A stretch of 64,000 nucleotides of DNA from the NCBI GenBank assembly GCA_965217865.1, contig CBDCJO010000002.1, forward strand, positions 3,232,001-3,296,000. The letters run 5' to 3'. The notes under the pieces are model-generated. The model did not search any database and had not been told where the DNA came from. It saw nothing but the letters and a program-made list of their open reading frames with translations. Below are positions 51,077-64,000 of this stretch, piece by piece (position 1 is the stretch's first letter; every line of letters begins with the position of its first letter). The translations under genes and the position numbers were made by a program. Source of the DNA: Candidatus Latescibacterota bacterium. Its GTDB lineage: Bacteria; Latescibacterota; UBA2968; SICM01.

Positions 51077-52687
51077 GTGCCCTTTACGTTTTCTGTTCCC
51101 AGCCTAAACGGCCAAACCGAAATCAGTATAGAGCCTGGATCTTCCGTGGTTTTTGTGGGTGCTAATGGCGGGGGAAAAACCAGACTCGCCGTGTATATGG
51201 AATCCGTATTAGCCCTGAACGCGCACCGTATTTCTGCGCATCGGGCGCTTACGCTCAATCCGGGCATCTCCAAAATCAGTGAACGGGCCGCTCTATCCGG
51301 CCTGAGGACCGGATATCCCGACGAAAAGTCCACATTGGACTACCGAGAAGGTTACCGATGGCATAGTAACGAGGCCACTTGGCTACTTAACGACTTCGAC
51401 TTCCTAGTACAGGCCCTCTTCGCCGATCAGATGATCATATCTCTGAAGACGCATCAAAGAAACCGTAACGGCGATCATAGTGTCGCCGATCCTACAAAGT
51501 TTGAGAGTCTCGTCACAATCTGGGAACGCTTGCTGCCAGATCGTCAACTCCATATTTCAGGGGACAACATCCAGGCCTCCGTTTGCGGATCGGAAGAGTA
51601 CTACACGGCTTCCGATATGAGCGACGGCGAACGCGCGATTTTCTACATGATAAGTCAGACTCTCACCGCCGCCTCAAATTCGATCCTCATATTCGACGAG
51701 CCAGAACTCCATGTGCACAGCTCGATCATTGCCAAGGTTTGGGACGAGTTGGAGGCTGCCCGACAAGACTGTGCTTTCGTGTTCATCACCCACGACCTGG
51801 GATTTGCTGCCTCTCGCGTGGCCCAGAAGTTCATCATCCGTGACTTCGATCCTTCCCCTCACTGGACCATCGAAAAGGTTCCGGAAAACACCGGGTTTGA
51901 CGAAGAAATCACAACTCTTATACTCGGCAGCCGACGGCCAATTCTCTTTGTTGAGGGTGATGAGAATAGTCTTGATCAAGCAATCTATCGATGCAGCTAT
52001 CCTGACTGGACTGTTATTCCGAGAGGATCTTGCCGGGACGTCATCCACTCCGTTGTAACGATGAGGAAAAATCAGGAGCTCACCCGCGTAACCTGTTCGG
52101 GCATCGTAGACGCTGACGACCGTCAAGCCGATGAGATTGCCCAGCTGGCCAGTCTCGGTATTGCCGTCTTGCCAGTCCCGGAGATCGAGAACGTCATCCT
52201 TCTGCCGCCGGTCAGTCGAGCCCTCGCCATGAGCAATGGCTATAGGGACGACGCTCTCGAAACCAAATTGAATGAGTTGAAGGCAGATGTTTTTGCAACT
52301 CTGAATTCAGCCGAAGCGATCGACGCTGTGGTAACGCGGTATTGCCGTCGGCGGATCGACCGATTCCTAAAACAAATCGACCTTAAAGAAGCCACCAACG
52401 TTTCCAACATCACGGACGAATACGATCGCCAGATAGCTGCACTCAACATTCCAGCTATTGCCCAACAAGCTAAAACTCGCATTGAAGAGGCCATTCGTGA
52501 CAACGACCTTCCAAAACTTCTGGCCAACTACGACAACAAAGGCTTGCTGCAACTGGCGGCCAAACATCTGAAGAGTTTAAAGCTGGCAGATTTTAAGGGT
52601 TGGCTTACCAGGGTCTTAAGGAATAACACTGAGACCTCACTGGTCACGGCCATTGACAACTTCCTCCCAAAAATTGAGCCTCAATGA
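51077..52687 (+). CDS. ABC-ATPase fused to TOPRIM/DUF4435-like domain
   Basis: GANGGGKT, SDGER, DEPE, THD, FVEGD, VDAD, EIEN. Confidence 0.85.
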   Translation: MPFTFSVPSLNGQTEISIEPGSSVVFVGANGGGKTRLAVYMESVLALNAHRISAHRALTLNPGISKISERAALSGLRTGYPDEKSTLDYREGYRWHSNEATWLLNDFDFLVQALFADQMIISLKTHQRNRNGDHSVADPTKFESLVTIWERLLPDRQLHISGDNIQASVCGSEEYYTASDMSDGERAIFYMISQTLTAASNSILIFDEPELHVHSSIIAKVWDELEAARQDCAFVFITHDLGFAASRVAQKFIIRDFDPSPHWTIEKVPENTGFDEEITTLILGSRRPILFVEGDENSLDQAIYRCSYPDWTVIPRGSCRDVIHSVVTMRKNQELTRVTCSGIVDADDRQADEIAQLASLGIAVLPVPEIENVILLPPVSRALAMSNGYRDDALETKLNELKADVFATLNSAEAIDAVVTRYCRRRIDRFLKQIDLKEATNVSNITDEYDRQIAALNIPAIAQQAKTRIEEAIRDNDLPKLLANYDNKGLLQLAAKHLKSLKLADFKGWLTRVLRNNTETSLVTAIDNFLPKIEPQ

Positions 52688-55256: not shown

Positions 55257-56733
55257 GTGTAACAACCGGTTGCCACTGCGGCGCGTGCACGGAGCTACAT
55301 TCGAAAGGTGTGGAAAAAGAGAGAAGGCGACCCTAAACTTCCCGTGAGATAGAAATATCCACAAGATGCCGGGTGATTGGCCCGGTGGGAAGGAGGATCG
55401 CCGTGAAGAAACATACGTCAGACACACCGTGTTTGTCCATCCCTACTTGGGAGACCCTGGAAGGGTGGATTCGAGATGAGATCGAGGTTCGCATCCAGTC
55501 GATTGCCGAGGAGGAAGTGACCCAGTTCCTGGGACGGGGGTGGTATGAGCGTAAAGGAACTGTCGATGCGGCCCCCGGTTATCGCAACGGCTACGGGAAG
55601 CTGCGCCGATTGTCGACCTCTTGTGGCACGATAAAGATCAAGCGGCCCCGTGTTCGTGGATTGAAGGAGCGCTTCGAGAGCCGGATCCTGCCCTTGTTCG
55701 CGCGTCGCACAAAAGAGGTGGGAGAACTGCTCCCAGAACTTTATCTGCACGGTCTGGCTCAAGGCGACTTCGAGCTGGCCTTGCGGGGTCTGCCCGGAGA
55801 TGGAGCGCCGCTGTCTTCATCGTCGATTGCCCGACTCCGCGGCCAATGGGAAACCGACTACCAGACCTGGCAGGAACGACGCCTGGATGATCGCGAGCTG
55901 GTCTACGCCTGGGCAGACGGCATCTATGTCAAAGCCGGCCTGGAGAAGGATAAGGCGTGCTTGCTGGTCATCATCGGCGCAATGAGCGATGGCCGCAAAG
56001 AGGTTCTCGCCCTGGTGTCCGGCTACCGAGAGTCCACCGAGTCCTGGCTGGAGGTCCTCAGAAACCTGCGCGATCGTGGCCTGAGCCCCCCTGTCCTCGT
56101 CGTCGCCGACGGCAATATGGGCATCTGGTCCGCAGTCAATCAGGTCTGGCCACACACCCGGCAGCAGCGGTGCTGGAACCACAAAATCCTCAACGTAGTC
56201 AACCAGATCCATAAACGCCAACAGGCCCAAGCCCGGGCGTTGCTCGTTCAGATCCCCTACGCCTACACCCTTCGGGATGCCGAGAAGATCCGCAGGCAGT
56301 TCATCGCACGATATCAAGACCCGTTCCCGAAGGCAGTCAAGACCCTTGATCGAGACTGGGATCGTATACTTACCCTCTTCGACTTCCCAAAACCACACTG
56401 GAGGCACCTGAGAACCACCAATGCCGTCGAAAGCCCGTTTGCCTCCGTCCGCCTCAGAACCAACGCGGCCAAGCGATACAAGAAGGTCGCTGCGGCAAGT
56501 GCTCTGATCTGGCGCACGCTGATGGTCGCTGAGAAACGCTTCCGACGACTTGATGCACCCCATCTGATGCCGGATGTCTACGCACAGCACCACCGTAAAA
56601 AAAAGATCACTATCGACTCGGGAGAGAAGCTGGCCGCCTGACCTTTTTACACACCTCTTGACGAGAGCTCCGTGCACGCCTTGGCCTTCGGCAACCCGCT
56701 ACGCGGGTTCGGCAACCGGGAAGACGATACGAC
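55257..56733 (+). other. Degenerate attC split by IS256
   Basis: GTGTAAC, CCGGTTGCC/GGCAACCGG stem, AACCCGCT/GCGGGTTC as in attC5; R' lacks TT. Confidence 0.65.
55292..56670 (+). mobile_element. IS256-family element, complete (transposase 55403-56641)
   Basis: GAGCT... imperfect IRs, 8 bp duplication CGTGCACG, WADG, VADG, RTTNAVES. Confidence 0.93.
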
Positions 56734-56774
56734 AGAACATTTAGTTCCTATTTTTACTTTTTGATTCTTTGTTT

Positions 56775-57465
56775 TCGAACTCCGGTATGTCGTCACTCGC
56801 GACCGCCCAGTCTTCGCCGACCGGCGGATCGTCGCGACGGTAACTCGGCCCCGGCGGAGTCCACCACGCTTTCTCATCTGAGGCGAAGGTTGGGCTTAAC
56901 TCGAACTCACCATCCTCGTTGTGCTTACGGGCCGGAGGCGGCAGTGTCGGGTCGATATCTCGGCCGAAGAACTGCCACGGCCCTGCATAGGTCACCGGCT
57001 GATCATCGAAGAAGTCTGTCATGTGGAAGTTGTCCGCGATCCTTGCGGCCAGTTCGCGAAGGGCTATCCACTGGTACTTCTTCCCGAAGCGTTCAGCCTT
57101 GTGCTCGCTGCTGTGATCGGTCTGATGTCCTACTTGGTGCTGATCAAATTTGGCGAATGCCCGCGGGGTCCAACCAAGAGAGAGCACACGTTCGAAAACC
57201 CAGCGCTGCCCTAGCTCTACGGGATACTCCGCTTCTAGGTCACGCCTTGGCTGGACCGAGGAGAGCGGATACTGGCTGAAGTCCCGGAGTTTGGGTTTGA
57301 TGACATACTTTCCGAAGTCGCCCCAGAAGATCGAGATAAACAACTTTCTATACGGCCAATCTACACCGTCGTGCTTGTCCCTGTCGTACGCACGCTCAAG
57401 CTGTTTCTTCGTACGCGGTTTCCCGGGTGGAGCGGAGCCGTGCCCGGGCCGCACCTTGAACGGAT
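56775..57465 (-). pseudogene. Internal fragment of a large Avs/STAND-like defence protein
   Basis: AERFGKKYQWIA, RDIDPT motifs. Confidence 0.55.
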
Positions 57466-57479
57466 TGAGCAGACCGGAC

Positions 57480-57950
57480 AGGCCGCCTCCATGACGGCGC
57501 GCGGCGCGTCGGTGCGTTCCGACGCCCAGTCGCGGAAGCTCGACCGGAACCCGTGAGGCACCGCCGGAATGCCGAGTTCCCACAGCAGCTTGGAAAGTGT
57601 TGCGTCTGACAGCGGTTTGCTATATCTTATACCGGAAGATACCAGACCGGTCTCCTCCTGGGCGAGAGTCCGCGCTACGCTCAGGACTTCCAGCGCCCGC
57701 CCGGACAGCGGCACCCGGTGGGGACGCTTCGCCTTCATGCGCTCGCCGGGGATGGTCCACTGGCGGGCTTCCAGGTCGATTTCGTCCCACCGGGCCAGGC
57801 GGACCTCGCCCGAACGGCACGCCGTCAGCACCAGGAACTCGAAGGCCAGCTTCGCGGCCAGAGAAGCTATCCGAAGCCTGCACCGCCTCTATTGCGCATG
57901 CAACCTCGCCGTGGGGAAGCGCCCGCTGGTGGCGCTTGATATCGCCTTCT
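57480..57950 (-). pseudogene. P4-like integrase catalytic fragment
   Basis: LTACRSGEV, RMKAKRPHRVPLS, HGFRSSFRDW; catalytic Tyr region missing. Confidence 0.9.
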
Positions 57951-59029
57951 CGGGATGCCGGCCACGCCTGCGCCCGGGCGCGCGCCGAAGTGATTATGAA
58001 TATTGAACCCAATAAGCTCAATGTCGGCGGTCAGGACTTCCGCGTCAAGTATAATCCATCGGCTCTGGGCGGCGCTTTTGTCTATAGCCCGAAGACGCGG
58101 TACCGGGGTGTCCAGCGCAATCTAATCTGGTGGGCGCCGGTTCCGAAGAGGGGAGGTACCGTTAAGGTCTATCCCTTGAATGGCCCGTCTCAGATGGTTA
58201 CGCCGGGCCTGGAATTTCCTATGCGGGCGGGTTTAACTAAAGCGCCCCAGGCGTACAAGGTTAATAAGTACATCTGGGGACGATAGTATAAAGGATACCC
58301 TTCGCGATATGAAGTGGATTGTAGGATTGATCGACGCGAGGGCATCAAAGCCGAACCGTCCAAAGACCTACTCCCCTCGAATTTCAAACTGAGACCCATA
58401 TTCGTCAGATCTGGTGGAGCAAAGGGAAGTTCAAGGAGGGAAGATGCCCCATCCCCACGGCAGTATCCGGTTTTCAAACCGTTCTTCCAGACCCCGTACA
58501 AGGTCGCTTTACCTCAATCGTGCCACCCGTCAGGTTCAGTTTTCGAGGCTTGCCATACCCATTGCGATAGCCAGAAATTAAATCGACTCCAGAATGCCGT
58601 TCGTAAGGACATCGACCCCAAAAGGCGGTTACCTTTTCCTCCTGCAATCTCCTTTGAATCTCACCGTGTATCCACTCTTTAAGCGCCTCCCAAGGCTCTC
58701 GATGGGGCGATCACCAAAGCATCCGTGGGGGTAGACAGGCCACCGGTTAAGCCCTGTGGACCGAAGGAAGCGGGGCACCTAGGTGCAGTGTGTTGACCGA
58801 CCGGCGGGGTGCCCCTTTGTCAGTCGTGGTGCCCCCTGCTAATACCCACAACAAAGACCGTCGCCCTGAAGACGCTGGATGTAATCGCGGTTGATGGGCG
58901 GAGTCCTTGAACGCGACCATATCCTGCACGGCGGAAAACGAGGTGAACTTCCACATACTTCTGCCACCGTCAAGAATCTACCCTGCTCGTCGCTGGGTCG
59001 TCGAATGTACCCACGCTTGGCACAACCCA

Positions 59030-59705
59030 GGGGGATGCGTCGCTTGAGGCATTGCCTGGTCAGTACGCTGAGCTCGATTTCGGCGATGTTGAGCCAGCTA
59101 TCGTGTTTCGGCGTGTAGCGTAGTTCAAGACACCCAACGCGCGTGCCTTCGAGGGTAGAAAGGCTTCGTAAAGCTGGCGGATCGATCCAGCCACTCGCGT
59201 TCTCCTTCTGTCAGACGAACAATGTACTTCTTCTTAGGCATACCGATGGCTCATTCACATGCGTAGTGCTGTAGCCGTCCCCACAACGATTCAATTTCTC
59301 GGCCCGTTGGCCGCATCAAGTATATAACTACGCTGCTTGAGGTGGACTACCCGGATGCGGAAGTCGTGGTCCTGGTCTGCGACAACCTCAGTACTCACAC
59401 CATCGCATCTCTCTACGAGGCCTTCCCACCCGAAAAGGCCCGTTCTCTAGCCAAACGCCTCGGATTGCGCTACACCCCCAAGCACGGCAGCTGGCTCAAT
59501 GTCGCCGAGATCGAACTGAGCGTCCTTGCCAGACAATGCCTGCACAGCCGCATTCCTGACCTGCAGACCCTCACCAACCAGGTGGAGGCCTGGAAATGTG
59601 ATCGAAACGAGAAACACAGAACCATTGATTGGCAGTTCAGGACCACCGACGCCCGCATCAAACTGAAGAAGCTCTATCCCAAGTTTTAGGTGTCAGGGTG
59701 TACTA
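59030..59705. mobile_element. Two divergent IS630 C-terminal fragments (59030-59175 minus; 59335-59705 plus)
   Basis: YTPKH.SWLN.AEIE in both. Confidence 0.85.
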
Positions 59706-59882
59706 GTTTGGGGTTGAAAAGCTTGTGGTAAACCTTCGCCTGATCAACGGAATGGACTGAAAGGGAGGGGATATGAGCATCAGGAAGAAGCCCGGAAGGA
59801 GTCTGCTCATACCACGGCCAAGTGCGATCGATCTGCCAAAACGAATGTTCGAACCGAAGATCAAAAGTGGAGAACCATCGGG

Positions 59883-60308
59883 ATGAAAAAGAAGGATTGG
59901 ATTCTATTAGCCCTTCTGGCCGCAAAGGACTACAGATTACAGCCGGTACAGTTACAGAAGAGCCTTTTTCTGTTGAGCGAATCCGGGCTTCTGGGGGGGC
60001 GCAGTTTCTACAAGTTCGAGCCGTATCACTATGGCCCGTTTTCGCATGAGGTATATAAAGAGGCCGACCGGATGGTCCTTGAGGGACTGATCGTCGTGTT
60101 GCCCGTACCGGGCGTGCGCTGGCGAGAATACTGGATCACAGAAGAGGGCAAGATAGCCGCAGAAAAAATCGCGACGAAACCGGAGCAGCCTTGGGAATAT
60201 TTGAAGCTGCTTGTCACGTGGATTCAGGATCTTTCGTTCCAGGATCTGATCAAAACGATCTACGCGCACTTCCCAGCCTACAAGGTCAACAGCGTTTTCG
60301 GAGAGTAA
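59883..60308 (+). CDS. YwgA/SocA(DUF4065)-like winged-helix protein
   Basis: LQKSLFLL, FEPYHYGPFS..VY, Y..TEEG. Confidence 0.75.
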   Translation: MKKKDWILLALLAAKDYRLQPVQLQKSLFLLSESGLLGGRSFYKFEPYHYGPFSHEVYKEADRMVLEGLIVVLPVPGVRWREYWITEEGKIAAEKIATKPEQPWEYLKLLVTWIQDLSFQDLIKTIYAHFPAYKVNSVFGE

Positions 60309-60310
60309 CA

Positions 60311-61090
60311 GTGACTCTGATCGTAGGGATCTTATGTAAAGACGGAGTGGTCGTGGGATCAGACGGAGCGGCGACACTCGGATCACTCGGTTCCCAGACG
60401 GCTCGTCAGCCAACGAAAAAGCTCTGCGGCGTCGGGAATCGAATCATCGTTGGCGTATCTGGCCCCGTTGGGATGTCTCAACTACTGGTTGATCAAGTTG
60501 AATCTCTCAATGGGACAAACAAGCTGTCCAAAACGCAGTGCAAGAGCGCTGCTGATGCCATGCGTACCATCAGCACTGAATTCAAGAAAGACATCATCCC
60601 AGCAGCGCAAACGGCGCAAAGTGTAGCCAATCTCGTCGGACATCAAAACGCAGCCACGAGTGCCTTATGTTCAAGTGTTGTGGCCTTGCCGGTCAAGGGA
60701 AAGCCCACACTTCTTCAGTTCGATTACCAAGGTGCCGGAGAAGCTGCGAGCGAGGATCTTCCCTTTCTTTCGGTCGGGAGCGAACAGAAGACGGCAGACC
60801 CATTCTTGGCGTTTATCAGAAGGCTATTCTGGGAGAAACGTTTGCCAAAATTGGCGGAAGGCGTCTTTGCAACCACTTGGACGCTAAAGCAGGCAATCCG
60901 AACGAGCACCGGCGGGGTTTCGGATCCTATCCAATTGATGGTGCTGGAAGCAGATAGGGTGAGGGATATCACATCTGAGTTGGATGACCACGAAGCGAAT
61001 GTTGAAGCCTTGGAAGATCATATCAGAGAATTCAGCACTGAATACAGCAAAGTAGAGCCTGATTCGATGCCCAAACCGCCTGAACCCTAA
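60311..61090 (+). CDS. Proteasome-beta-like Ntn hydrolase
   Basis: GTG start then TLIVGILCKDGVVVGSDG (Thr1, Asp17), TKKL, VGVSG, SVGS, GGVSDPI. Confidence 0.75.
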   Translation: MTLIVGILCKDGVVVGSDGAATLGSLGSQTARQPTKKLCGVGNRIIVGVSGPVGMSQLLVDQVESLNGTNKLSKTQCKSAADAMRTISTEFKKDIIPAAQTAQSVANLVGHQNAATSALCSSVVALPVKGKPTLLQFDYQGAGEAASEDLPFLSVGSEQKTADPFLAFIRRLFWEKRLPKLAEGVFATTWTLKQAIRTSTGGVSDPIQLMVLEADRVRDITSELDDHEANVEALEDHIREFSTEYSKVEPDSMPKPPEP

Positions 61091-61159
61091 GCAAACCGTA
61101 TAAAATGCAATGATGTAATTGTTTATACGCGGCATAGAAAAGGCGATTTTTTCGTATGA

Positions 61160-61600
61160 GGTCAGTCGAGTTCGCCACGCAGCCACCGGGCCAGCGCCTT
61201 CTTCGGAGAAGAGATCTCCCTCACAGACGTATAGTAGTAGTCTTCCCACCCCCATTCAGGGAGACCGGTGAAGAGCATGAGGTTCAGGGGATAGACTTCG
61301 GAGTCTGTACATCTTCTTAAATCGTCGCGGAAGAGGAAGGTCTTCCGAGTTCTACCATGACGCCTTCGTCGGGCGGGGTACCGTTCACGATCGCAAAAAT
61401 ACCGTCCGCCTCGACAACGTCCTTCAGGTCAGCCTGTCCCACCTTGTATGCCCATCCGGACGCGGTGAAGTCGATCTGATTGTTTCGCTCCCACACCTCC
61501 GCTCCCAGCGAACCGATCGCCTCTACAAAGGCGGGAAGCAGTCCTTGTCTCTGCTGCTGTGAAAACCCGTAGGGGTTTGCCAGGTAAACGCTCTTCTTCA
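61160..61600 (-). pseudogene. Nucleoside 2-deoxyribosyltransferase-like gene with small deletions
   Basis: VYLANPYGF, PDEGVMVELG, frameshift to TFLFRDD. Confidence 0.8.
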
Positions 61601-61844
61601 CGGTCGGACTCCTTTCTTGAACGGTCACGGATGGGCTACAGCATCCACGGATGAAGAGAACCGGAGGTCCCGTGAGTTTCACGCAACCGGTTCAGCGTCG
61701 TTCCTTGACGAAGCTGCGTTCGACGAGGCTTGGCTATTACCTTTGTGGTGATTGCCGTCAGTGCAGAAAGTGTTATAGACGAAAGGATGCTACGTGACAT
61801 GAATGGTGAGTCGATATGGCGTCCGTGCAAGAGCGAAGACCCGA

Positions 61845-62161
61845 GTAAACCACCCCGCCCAAAGGGCGGGGCATTAACCACTCCCACCCCCAAAATCTTC
61901 TGCTATCCGATGAAACAGCTTGCCCACATACGCTCGTTGGTCACCTCCCAGAACCCATTTCCGGTACTTCGGTGCCCATACCAGAGGATACTGGCTATCA
62001 TAGACTGCGTGACTGGTCCGTCGGAGTCCCATCGTATGCCTCCTGAGTCGATTTGTGTCTCAGTGGTCTGAACACGATAAGACATCCTTTTAGCTTGCCT
62101 TCGGCAAGCTAAACTTTTCCTCCCCTTCCAAAGGAAGGGGTATCCAAGTTCAAATACTTTC
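61845..62161 (-). mobile_element. Internally deleted copy of the IS200-type element
   Basis: Both ends retained; 288 bp (46538-46825 equivalent) missing between TTTGG repeats. Confidence 0.9.
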
Positions 62162-62473
62162 ATGAAGCCCCCAGTATCCACCTCGCAGAGATGTGGGCTG
62201 GAGATTCCGTGTCAATAAAAGCCACCGGATCCTAGGAACCACGTGTAATAAAGCACATGAACGCATTGCACAACCGTCCCCTGGTCTAGGGATAACGACG
62301 ATGGTTTCCGCCAAGCATTGATCGCAACCCTTCGCCGATCGCTTGATCAATCCTGATGACCGTCTACGGAACAGAAGGCTGTTCCGGTCTCCTCCATCAA
62401 TGCTCATGCTTTCTCCCAATCAGTCCTGTCGTTTTCTTGTGTCTGGGGAACATGAGAAAATGACGGAAACCCA

Positions 62474-62545
62474 ATGCAGAGCAAACGAGACGGCTTGGTT
62501 CCCATCGGTGAAGTCTTCGGCGGCCTGGACGGGCCAGTGATCGTG
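62474..62545 (+). pseudogene. repA start fragment
   Basis: MQSKRDGLVPIGEVFGGLDGPV. Confidence 0.7.
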
Positions 62546-62842
62546 CTTCCATCCGGGTTCTGCCGGACATGCTCCTTGGCCGTGACCGTGGGCTCCAGCG
62601 CGGCCTTCTGGATAACAACAAGGTTCGAGACTTTGAGATCCGCCTCGGTCTTTTTTATGGACTCCAAAAAATGACAAAATTGACCCGATTTCGCCGCCGC
62701 GCCAGCTCGGAGCCAGCGATAGAAAGTCCTTTCGCTGATTCCCGCCACCCGGCAGGCGTCTTTGTTCGAGAGGCCCCTTCCGAACACTTTCAGCGATCTC
62801 GGCCCCGAGCTCGGGTGTCAGCTTTGTTTTACGTCCCACCAT
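62545..62842 (-). pseudogene. HTH / terminase-small-subunit-like gene, frameshifted and truncated
   Basis: GRKTKLTPEL then DACRVAGISERTFYRWL in another frame. Confidence 0.65.
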
Positions 62843-63412
62843 CGTTCACCTTCGCTGCCTTGAGCCGCGCCTGTCTCGCGCGCGGGCGAGGGTTGCCTTG
62901 TTCCGCGAGCCAGTGGGCCGTCCGGCTCCGGGGCGCCACAGGCGCGCCTCGATACCGGGGTGAGTCAAAGGCGCTACGGCCAAACCTCGACCTAACGGCC
63001 TTTTAGAGGGAGGCCCAAGGGGCCAAACTCAGGGGGTCTCGGCGCGCGTCTTCCTTATCCCTGAGGACGTGTGGAGCGTAACCCATCCTTGCCGCCCTCC
63101 CTGCCAACCGATCCAGGAAGGAGTTCGCCGCCGTGAGCCGTACGCCTGGGGGCGCTTCCGGGTCTTCGGCAATGTCTGCAACGACTTCAAGCATCGCGCC
63201 CAGCCGGTCCCTAGCGAGGACCTTGTCCTTGCTTGACGACGTCTGGCGAAGCCAAATAAATAGTCTTGACAAAACGATCGCGAGTTGGTCTACGCCTGGG
63301 CAGATACCCCGTCAGGGCACAAAAACCTGTACAAAGAATCCCCCGCCAAGCACCTTCGTCCTATGTGTTCCAAGTGTTACAGCATGGCCGTTAATTCAAT
63401 GAGGATCAGAAA

Positions 63413-63664
63413 GTGAACGTTCGGATTCAAAGGCGGCGGACCAAAGGATGGCGATCCCCACGGGGATCAATTTACGTCGGGCGGCCGTCAAGATGGGGAA
63501 ACCCTTTCACGGGGCCTGGCTGCGTGGATAAGTATCGGGTTTGGTTTTTATCTCAACCCGGCATGCTTGCCGAAGCGAAGGAAAAATTAACAGGCCATGA
63601 CCTGTCGTGCTGGTGTCCGCTTGGTGCACCTTGTCATGCAGACGTTATTCTGGATTATCTTTGA
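63413..63664 (+). CDS. DUF4326-family protein
   Basis: YVGRPSRWGNPF, LSCWCP, CHADV. Confidence 0.88.
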   Translation: MNVRIQRRRTKGWRSPRGSIYVGRPSRWGNPFTGPGCVDKYRVWFLSQPGMLAEAKEKLTGHDLSCWCPLGAPCHADVILDYL

Positions 63665-63678
63665 TGGGAGGAAGTGAG

Positions 63679-64000
63679 ATGTTCAAGACTATCTTTCTGT
63701 TATCGATGTTTGCGGTCGCGCCAATCGAGGCGAAGCTGCTGCCGCTTGGTTCTTACGTTTCCATCATCGGAGGACCTGTATTCGTAAACGACGCAGAGTT
63801 AATATCAAGCGGTCGCGTGCGTGGGTCGTTGATAGTGGCCCAAAACGTCTCTAAGTTTGACACTGGCTTTAATACTCGTGGGGCGTTTGGCAGCAAAATT
63901 AATGGATGGCCGTTCCGGGTCGAAGGTGAGATCGGATATCGCAATACTAAGATCAAAGCCCTTCCCTATAAATCCTGGATCAGAGATGGCAAATCCACCA
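63679..64000 (+). CDS. Outer-membrane beta-barrel protein, runs off window
   Basis: Signal-like start, FRVEGEIGYR. Confidence 0.65.
   Translation, partial: MFKTIFLLSMFAVAPIEAKLLPLGSYVSIIGGPVFVNDAELISSGRVRGSLIVAQNVSKFDTGFNTRGAFGSKINGWPFRVEGEIGYRNTKIKALPYKSWIRDGKST

Follow-up and report, generated by a model that had tools for sequence, protein, structure and literature searches.

What does a proteasome-fold enzyme do directly behind a winged-helix gene? This question is raised by two adjacent genes in a 64,000-nucleotide stretch of a Candidatus Latescibacterota genome (contig CBDCJO010000002.1 of assembly GCA_965217865.1), here called the window. The first open reading frame (ORF), ORF1 (59883..60308, forward strand, with stop TAA at 60306-60308), encodes a 141-amino-acid winged helix-turn-helix (wHTH) protein of the DarG-C/DUF488-N/YwgA/Panacea superfamily. 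The second, ORF2 (60311..61090, forward strand, 259 codons), opens with GTG-ACT and encodes a proteasome-beta-like N-terminal nucleophile (Ntn) hydrolase of the Thr1 type without a propeptide. Both frames are intact, as the first-pass annotation of this DNA had read them, and only two bases (CA) separate the ORF1 stop from the ORF2 GTG. Comparison with related loci showed that the two genes form a mobile unit complete in itself, in which an enzyme with a conserved Thr1 center is joined by a partner from an antitoxin superfamily.

A self-contained two-gene unit

A profile search with ORF2 gave 145 loci, comprising 62 from genomes, 80 (out of 246) from metagenomes, and 3 from viral records, and a wHTH gene stands directly upstream of the Ntn gene in 141 of them, a few of these wHTH genes being damaged. 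The loci are spread over about ten phyla, with record-title hosts that include Chloroflexota, Acidobacteriota, Pseudomonadota, Planctomycetota, Patescibacteria, Bacteroidota, Armatimonadota, Gemmatimonadota, and KSB1. Two of the four remaining loci end at a contig edge and two have no wHTH upstream; in one of the latter, the Ntn gene is cut by an insertion sequence (IS) and the genome has no wHTH match, and in the other, an IS-end-like repeat lies at the start codon. The two genes are separated by -4 to +25 nt in 134 of 137 loci. The family has many and varied members: one ORF2 search gave 134 proteins, and another gave 173 clusters at 50% identity (E up to 1e-30).

The association was also followed from the wHTH side, in a reverse survey of 168 genomes of the source's own phylum (matches to E 1e-30 followed) and of 401 plus 401 genomes of two other phyla (E up to 1e-20). 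Duplicates were removed, the window copy in the source genome (G000) being excluded and G008 and G081 counting as one locus each. All 26 loci with a tail-less wHTH adjoin an Ntn gene (25 downstream and 1 divergent), a count in which kin are not independent, and none of the eight wHTHs with a tail of 68 to 77 amino acids does so. The Ntn genes reached in this way include distant subfamilies, with E values of 1e-4 to 1e-17 to the ORF2 profile. Two viral loci are exceptions that lie outside the count: L186 has two tail-less wHTHs and no Ntn gene, and L184 is cut. A wHTH also lies upstream in remoter Ntn subfamilies of Chloroflexota (L312 and L338-L345), in some of which the nucleophile is preceded by a few residues. 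The pair is rare and scattered, occurring in 6/168, 13/401, and 4/401 genomes, and it was not found in two genomes of the source's own family.

No conserved third gene was found in the neighborhoods. The largest cluster of neighbors, in 6 of 111 groups, is the IS1595 transposase, and the upstream mini-ORFs of at least 20 amino acids that occur in 45 of 88 loci are mutually unrelated save for one close-kin pair; an upstream third gene as a member of the unit is thereby ruled out. Co-occurrence of the homologues, an Ntn fold, and freedom from an obligatory upstream gene had been set in advance as the checks that could overturn the first-pass annotation. All three were run, and each came out on its side, the fold as described below. 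Its proposal of a stand-alone module is likewise supported, by the 141/145 pairing together with the lack of a conserved third gene. The layout, a coupled two-gene operon with the antitoxin-type gene first and no third gene required, is that of type II toxin-antitoxin systems.

The wHTH and Ntn trees of 103 nonredundant pairs are concordant (Mantel rho of 0.59 against a permutation maximum of 0.21, with 30 of 100 splits in common). Linked genes agree without touching, and tree agreement therefore speaks for cotransfer, not for binding. Prediction of an ORF2-ORF1 complex gave a best score of 0.11 against a mark of 0.32.

The Thr1 enzyme and its winged-helix partner

A Shine-Dalgarno-like GGAGAG (60300..60305, forward strand) lies within the last ORF1 codons, 5 nt before the ORF2 GTG, and we infer translational coupling from ORF1 to ORF2. 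The mechanical ORF list opens the ORF2 frame at TTG 60191 and so masks GTG 60311, as had been pointed out. The GTG start is supported by homologues, 109 of 115 aligned sequences opening with Met/Val/Leu-Thr and the remaining 6 having no N terminus. In an alignment of 129 sequences (128 intact pairs from 151 loci, plus the window copy), the catalytic core proposed for ORF2 is invariant, 129/129 at each position. All of its codons are on the forward strand: Thr1, the nucleophile (60314..60316), Asp17 (60362-60364), Lys36, equivalent to Lys33 (60419-60421), and Gly50, equivalent to Gly47 (60461-60463). The same holds for a family-specific residue, Asp162 (60797-60799).

The window copy departs from the family at one motif, which is GSG elsewhere and reads GSE here (GGG AGC GAA at 60776-60784, forward strand, with the Glu codon GAA at 60782..60784), as already noticed from the letters. 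The third position is Gly in 125 of the 129 sequences, Val in 2, Ala in 1, and Glu only in the window copy, so that Glu is private to that copy and GSE as a family trait is ruled out. The GSE letters are identical in Logan contigs of runs X1, X4, and X6, from two studies, and the X1 and X4 contigs span both genes. GSE is no assembly error, though these three runs may include the source sample. The window ORF2 does not otherwise stand out: it deviates in 2 of 34 conserved columns, and 26% of rows reach that number.

ORF2 matches the Pfam Proteasome family PF00227 above its cut-off (E 1.3e-9). The predicted model (predicted local distance difference test [pLDDT], 94.6) has a proteasome-beta Ntn fold, closest to an archaeal beta subunit (6z46_H; Z 22.4, root mean square deviation [rmsd] 2.2, 179 residues aligned, Foldseek E ~1e-13). 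Its longest alignment among the proteasome-family rows is with Anbu (5loy_A; Z 21.5, rmsd 3.3, 215 residues aligned) and includes the C-terminal helix. With Anbu, ORF2 would also share a Thr1 exposed by removal of Met, as reported for that protein (PMC5666114), and the lack of an AAA+ partner. It differs in that identity is 16 to 20% and the Anbu operon (transglutaminase, ATP-grasp, and Alpha-E genes) is absent among 275 scanned neighbors. With the 20S beta subunits and HslV, ORF2 shares the fold and the catalytic triad; in contrast to these, it has no alpha subunit gene or hslU nearby, does not have Asp166/Ser169, and scores far below every NCBIfam cut-off, with 32 bits against 224 for HslV and 13 against 137 to 192 for 20S beta.

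Among known proteins, ORF2 is also close to a set of 22 prokaryotic proteasome homologues that was described in 2021 without a clue to function or to gene partners (PMC8665760). Its likeness to the PHI cluster of that study (representative WP_012956871.1) comprises the Thr1/Asp17/Lys33/Gly47 core, the lack of a propeptide, a helical insertion after H2, and a C-terminal helix, and the PHI members are highly diverged, with direct similarity to beta subunits. PHI proteins have no H3/H4 insertion, unlike PMI-2 to PMI-6, and some have a C-terminal coiled-coil helix; ORF2 agrees on both points. Its helices 80-104, 106-109, and 111-116 before strand 121 form the insertion after H2, with a 14-residue gap against the bacterial beta profile; helix 159-173 is followed by helix 181-198 with no H3/H4 insertion; and helix 221-247 is amphipathic, with hydrophobic positions 220/224/231/234/238/241. 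ORF2 thus probably belongs to the PHI homologues, matched on described features rather than by sequence cluster, the alternatives being WPH or a separate cluster.

The residues that support catalysis in beta subunits, which we take to be Ser129, Asp166, and Ser169 in beta-subunit numbering, are only partly kept in the ORF2 family: Ser129 is present in 110 of 129 sequences, the Asp166 column is variable (R/K/E), and the Ser169 column is Pro in 115 of 129. Given the replaced Asp166 and Ser169 positions and the variable Ser129, the residues suggest specific peptidase or amidase activity more than general protein degradation. No PADLOC model matches ORF2. The protein was not matched among PLSDB plasmids or INPHARED phages, and a Mesorhizobium homologue was not matched in plasmids. 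The source genome also has a canonical-type proteasome beta gene elsewhere, and a second, distant proteasome-like frame of 152 codons lies behind an IS in the same genome (L149:1411-1866, at about 5002160 of contig G000:C2).

ORF1 carries the motifs PVQLQK, FxPYxYGPF, and YP..NSVF and has no C-terminal tail. Within YGPF, G51 is present in 103 of 103 rows and P52 in 102 of 103. The AlphaFold2 model (pLDDT 92.5) matches the DarG C-terminal domain best and over its whole length (7yk3_D; Z 11.2, rmsd 4.3, 137 residues aligned). Of the PADLOC profiles, the N terminus of PDC-M19A, a wHTH-DUF488 fusion, came first (E 2e-16), followed by the C-terminal extension of HsdS, the type I specificity subunit (2e-11), and by DarG-C (8.5e-5). 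The PDC-M19A match covers positions 3-125 of the 294 in that profile, and ORF1 is not such a fusion. Profile-profile comparison of the ORF1 family by hhalign gave E 3e-14 to the DUF488-fused wHTH (a single sequence), E 2e-4 to 16 Panacea proteins over 111 columns with the LxKL and GPV-type motifs both in register, and E 2.3e-4 to 18 DarG-C domains, against E 0.44 for proteasome beta as a negative control.

The label YwgA/SocA-like given to ORF1 therefore held at the level of the superfamily and failed as membership in SocA/Panacea: ORF1 has no match in Pfam, PF13274 (SocA/Panacea) included, and 5 of 75 relatives reach PF13274 at E<0.01 (best, 6.4e-5). The ORF1 profile found no match among Protein Data Bank (PDB) sequences. 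With PanAT/SocAB, the pair shares the winged-helix superfamily, a GPV-like motif (GPF in ORF1), the two-gene layout, and partner swapping (PMC8832971), and it differs in that ORF1 lacks a PF13274 match. ORF1 is nearer to the winged helices of DUF488 fusions and of the DarG C terminus than it is to SocA. From the DarTG (7YK3) and PDC-M19A systems, which hold the closest fold and the closest profile to ORF1, it differs in being a stand-alone wHTH followed by an Ntn hydrolase, with no macrodomain, DUF488, or DarT-like neighbor; the DarG model NF048014 gives it 15 bits against a cut-off of 250.

A winged helix might instead bind DNA and control its own operon, with the Ntn enzyme either the regulated target or a protease that cleaves the wHTH, as in a switch of the ImmR/ImmA type. 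PadR/MarR winged helices are indeed the runner-up structures of ORF1, at Z 10.0 or less and over about 80 residues. The Ntn-less wHTHs carry an antitoxin-like tail, which is the layout of a DNA-binding domain plus a neutralizing tail, and one locus (L337) is divergently arranged. Upstream inverted repeats are in slight excess, with a mean arm of 5.60 against 5.35 +/- 0.10 in shuffles. Weighing the other way, the predicted recognition helix carries acidic residues (D/E in 94% of 103 rows at position 60 and in 79% at position 62), which argues against reading of DNA by the wHTH as judged from its residues. The wing has Trp in place of a conserved Arg, and median net charge is 0. No common operator motif was found, the enriched upstream words resembling ordinary promoter and ribosome sites, and there is no conserved regulated operon. 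We regard such regulation as unlikely.

Several relatives of ORF1 stand beside other partners. Farther wHTH relatives (E 1e-6 to 1e-9, about 190 amino acids) lie downstream of genes for proteins of 430 to 450 amino acids, a layout like that of ywfO-ywgA, and P0355 joins a wHTH of the ORF1 family and a type I restriction specificity subunit in one protein. In a provirus, a wHTH with a fused 120-amino-acid domain lies between terminase and portal genes (L182:3389-4216), and the genes of more distant wHTHs of 190 to 215 amino acids (L181, L321, L329) each precede a coupled gene whose product has hydrophobic stretches of a membrane-like kind. The tailed wHTHs nest among the Ntn-paired ones in a fast tree. 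Such sister wHTHs with a tail of 68 to 77 amino acids were seen at L158:1501-2683, L159, L162, and L350-L352, followed downstream by a DUF2335 membrane protein, another candidate effector, in L158 and L159; tailed wHTH plus DUF2335 is a candidate for a separate toxin-antitoxin or defense pair. At L313:2756-3656, a sister wHTH with an antitoxin-like tail is directly upstream of a HigB-2-like ORF, a weak match (best E 0.067, with 5/5 rows of the HigB-2 type).

Mobility, context, and the role of the pair

The context of the pair is mobile, with a modest defense signal. In five loci (L022, L047, L060, L061, and L098), the pair is cargo of an IS1595-family element with terminal inverted repeats and 8-bp target duplications, and three further loci have the repeats only, without a duplication, whereas a repeat pair of this kind occurred in 0 of 40 controls. 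The L006 element consists of hardly more than the pair and a transposase. One genome (G991) has five copies, each beside a transposase and one with a broken Ntn gene, and copies in proviruses adjoin portal or capsid genes (L144, L145). The G+C content is below that of the flanks in 46 of 54 loci.

Neighbors were scanned within 2.5 kb in 63 long, nonredundant loci (279 of 515 ORFs), with Pfam matches sorted by hand; the control comprised 199 ORFs from 40 fixed-position stretches in 23 of the same genomes. Within that distance, 16 of 43 genome loci have a defense or mobile gene, against 1 of 40 controls (p 7e-5), and 10 of the 43 have transposases or integrases, against 1 control. Restriction-modification, toxin-antitoxin, or defense genes are present in 7 of 43 genome loci against 0 of 40 controls (p 0.012), or against 2 when ambiguous matches are counted (p 0.16); over all 63 loci, the figure is 13 against 0 to 2 of 40 controls (p 0.001 to 0.04). 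PADLOC matched 15 of 279 neighbors, several of these matches being generic, in a comparison made without a control. In the source's own phylum, four of six loci are near restriction-modification genes: the copies in G052 and G055 lie within a type III restriction-modification region, with a type III-like methylase gene on one side and Fic genes on the other, and type II restriction-modification genes are near two further copies. At L315:1030-8335 and L316:943-8295, the pair lies between a large DNA methylase gene and two Fic genes, with a ResIII gene next in L315.

A housekeeping origin was also considered, in which a small ATP-independent protease and a chaperone-like or assembly partner serve stress responses or proteostasis and hitchhike on mobile DNA. 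Roles of the housekeeping type were proposed for such homologues by Fuchs et al. (PMC8665760), and 27 of the 43 genome loci have no defense or mobile gene within 2.5 kb. The patchy distribution, high divergence, low G+C content, and IS cargo are, however, unlike those of housekeeping genes, and all characterized ORF1 relatives known to us are conflict proteins. This origin seems very improbable.

We tentatively favor, as a possible role, a type II-like toxin-antitoxin or phage defense pair in which the wHTH would restrain the Ntn enzyme. It is favored because the wHTH gene comes first in the operon, because the closest solved wHTH relative is from a toxin-antitoxin complex, because relatives of the wHTH have exchanged their downstream partners, as in the Panacea family, and because the acidic recognition helix speaks against DNA reading. 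Removal of the start Met would expose Thr1, as reported for Anbu, and the ORF2 enzyme would work without an AAA+ partner. By analogy with the binding of toxins by Panacea and DarG-C domains, the wHTH would bind the enzyme through its conserved YGPF surface; if the wHTH were lost, or pushed aside by a phage product, the enzyme would be freed to cut a host or phage protein. Binding of DarT by DarG-C is taken here from the title of the PDB entry and from PMC8832971. According to the latter, the tested Panacea antitoxins bind their toxins directly, without ClpXP or Lon, and swap partners.

Several observations weigh against such a toxin-antitoxin or defense pair. Breakage lacks toxin-like asymmetry: the Ntn gene is broken beside an intact wHTH in five loci and the wHTH is broken or absent beside an intact Ntn gene in five others (L021, L084, L111, L112, L138), a distribution that does not depart from gene length (p 0.34), and many of the breaks may be assembly errors. 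In L337:660-1932, alone among the loci seen, the two genes point away from each other across about 63 nt and are not cotranscribed. At the profile level, ORF1 is only distantly similar to Panacea and DarG-C (hhalign probability, ~45%), and a wHTH whose relatives carry an antitoxin-like tail is also compatible with DNA binding. Enrichment of defense genes by themselves is weak (7/43 against 0 to 2 of 40, p 0.012 to 0.16), and most neighbors are unrelated housekeeping genes. Finally, no proteasome-fold toxin is among the 1,268 predicted PanAT pairs or in the NetFlax lists.

The first-pass annotation had thought of an adaptor, on the model of SocA. In this scheme, which also takes in a split, DarG-like pair of binder and eraser, the wHTH would pick up a protein of foreign origin (a phage factor or an incoming toxin, for example), the dedicated Ntn hydrolase would cleave or demodify it, and neither gene product would be toxic. 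SocA is a proteolytic adaptor for ClpXP according to PMC8832971, and the nearest ORF1 relatives are fused to enzyme domains, namely, DUF488 (hhalign E 3e-14) and the DarG macrodomain. Intact Ntn genes beside a damaged or missing wHTH, in the five loci above, also fit, and the mobile and defense context is equally compatible. Against this scheme, the neighborhoods have no conserved gene for a cognate toxin or a target, and no Ntn-wHTH fusion was found, in a weak search that returned 2 matches among 7,994 scored candidates. It ranks second best because ORF1 is nearer to the DUF488-fused and DarG-C wHTHs and because the Panacea antitoxins tested, other than SocA, act independently of ClpXP or Lon (PMC8832971). 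We consider it rather doubtful by itself, and a conflict role of one kind or the other, restraint or capture, is likely when the two are taken jointly.

It is an even bet, in our judgment, that the pair is a widespread, transposon-borne conflict system whose Thr1 proteasome-fold hydrolase is gated or targeted by a DarG-C/Panacea-type wHTH. It would be the first toxin-antitoxin or antiphage system built on the proteasome beta fold and would give an orphan homologue its first partner and function. The pairing was not found in the open full-text literature, in the PanAT and NetFlax texts and supplements, or in PADLOC; neither PMC8832971 nor PMC10440598 (NetFlax) names a partner of the proteasome, Ntn, or HslV kind in its text or supplements. 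This coverage does not extend to subscription papers, figure panels, or the supplements of bioRxiv preprints and of large comparative-genomics studies, and prior mention is possible. Neither domain is new, and the enzyme family probably figures among the homologues of 2021, which had no assigned function or partner. What is gained is a near-obligate partner, from an antitoxin superfamily, for one family of orphan proteasome homologues, and toxicity, binding, and phage tests are feasible with genes from cultured strains, GSG-type pairs being present in Fontivita pretiosa (L012), Mesorhizobium (L047), and Methylobacterium (L054 and L057). A toxin-antitoxin or defense role, if true, would give the Panacea/DarG network an effector chemistry of a new kind and link the proteasome fold to bacterial immunity, and a small, ATP-independent, partner-gated Thr1 enzyme could become a tool, as connectase did.

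The window copy and its surroundings

The source genome has three identical copies of the pair, two of them within 6.7- to 7.3-kb repeats of 99.9% identity at contig ends. Window positions 56774-64000 and beyond recur at 99.9% identity where contig C2 begins and where contig C1 ends, which is probably an assembly overlap. A true threefold amplification is doubtful, and the pair was counted once. One locus of the survey, L013 (genome G174), is unpublished and is the sole basis of no claim.

A remnant of an IS630-type transposase (59332..59706, forward strand; Pfam DDE_3), multicopy in the genome, ends 177 nt upstream of ORF1. Between the two, a 37-codon frame (59773..59886, forward strand) has a strong ribosome site and an ATGA overlap with the ORF1 start; no homologue of it was found in the frames upstream of the pair at 88 related loci or in the rest of the genome, and it lies outside the conserved unit. 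Positions 59316-59335 resemble the right end of an IS1595-family element, presumably of the ISNwi1 type, pointing away from the pair; no enclosing IS1595 ends or transposase were found around the window copy. No promoter-like (sigma-70-like) or terminator-like site was found in 59600-61400. The window copy may be attenuated, to judge from GSE, the IS remnant 177 nt upstream, and the lack of a recognizable sigma-70-like promoter.

Two defense-related genes lie upstream. An intact AriAB/PARIS-like ATPase-DUF4435 fusion gene (51077-52687, forward strand; PADLOC AriAB, E 1e-141) is 7 kb from the pair, and a C-terminal fragment of an Avs2-like gene (56741-57583, reverse strand) is 2.3 kb from it, between an integrase remnant and a multicopy IS (55373-56641). 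Downstream of the pair, at 61152-61761, is a piece of a nucleoside 2-deoxyribosyltransferase gene that recurs elsewhere in the genome at 93% identity.
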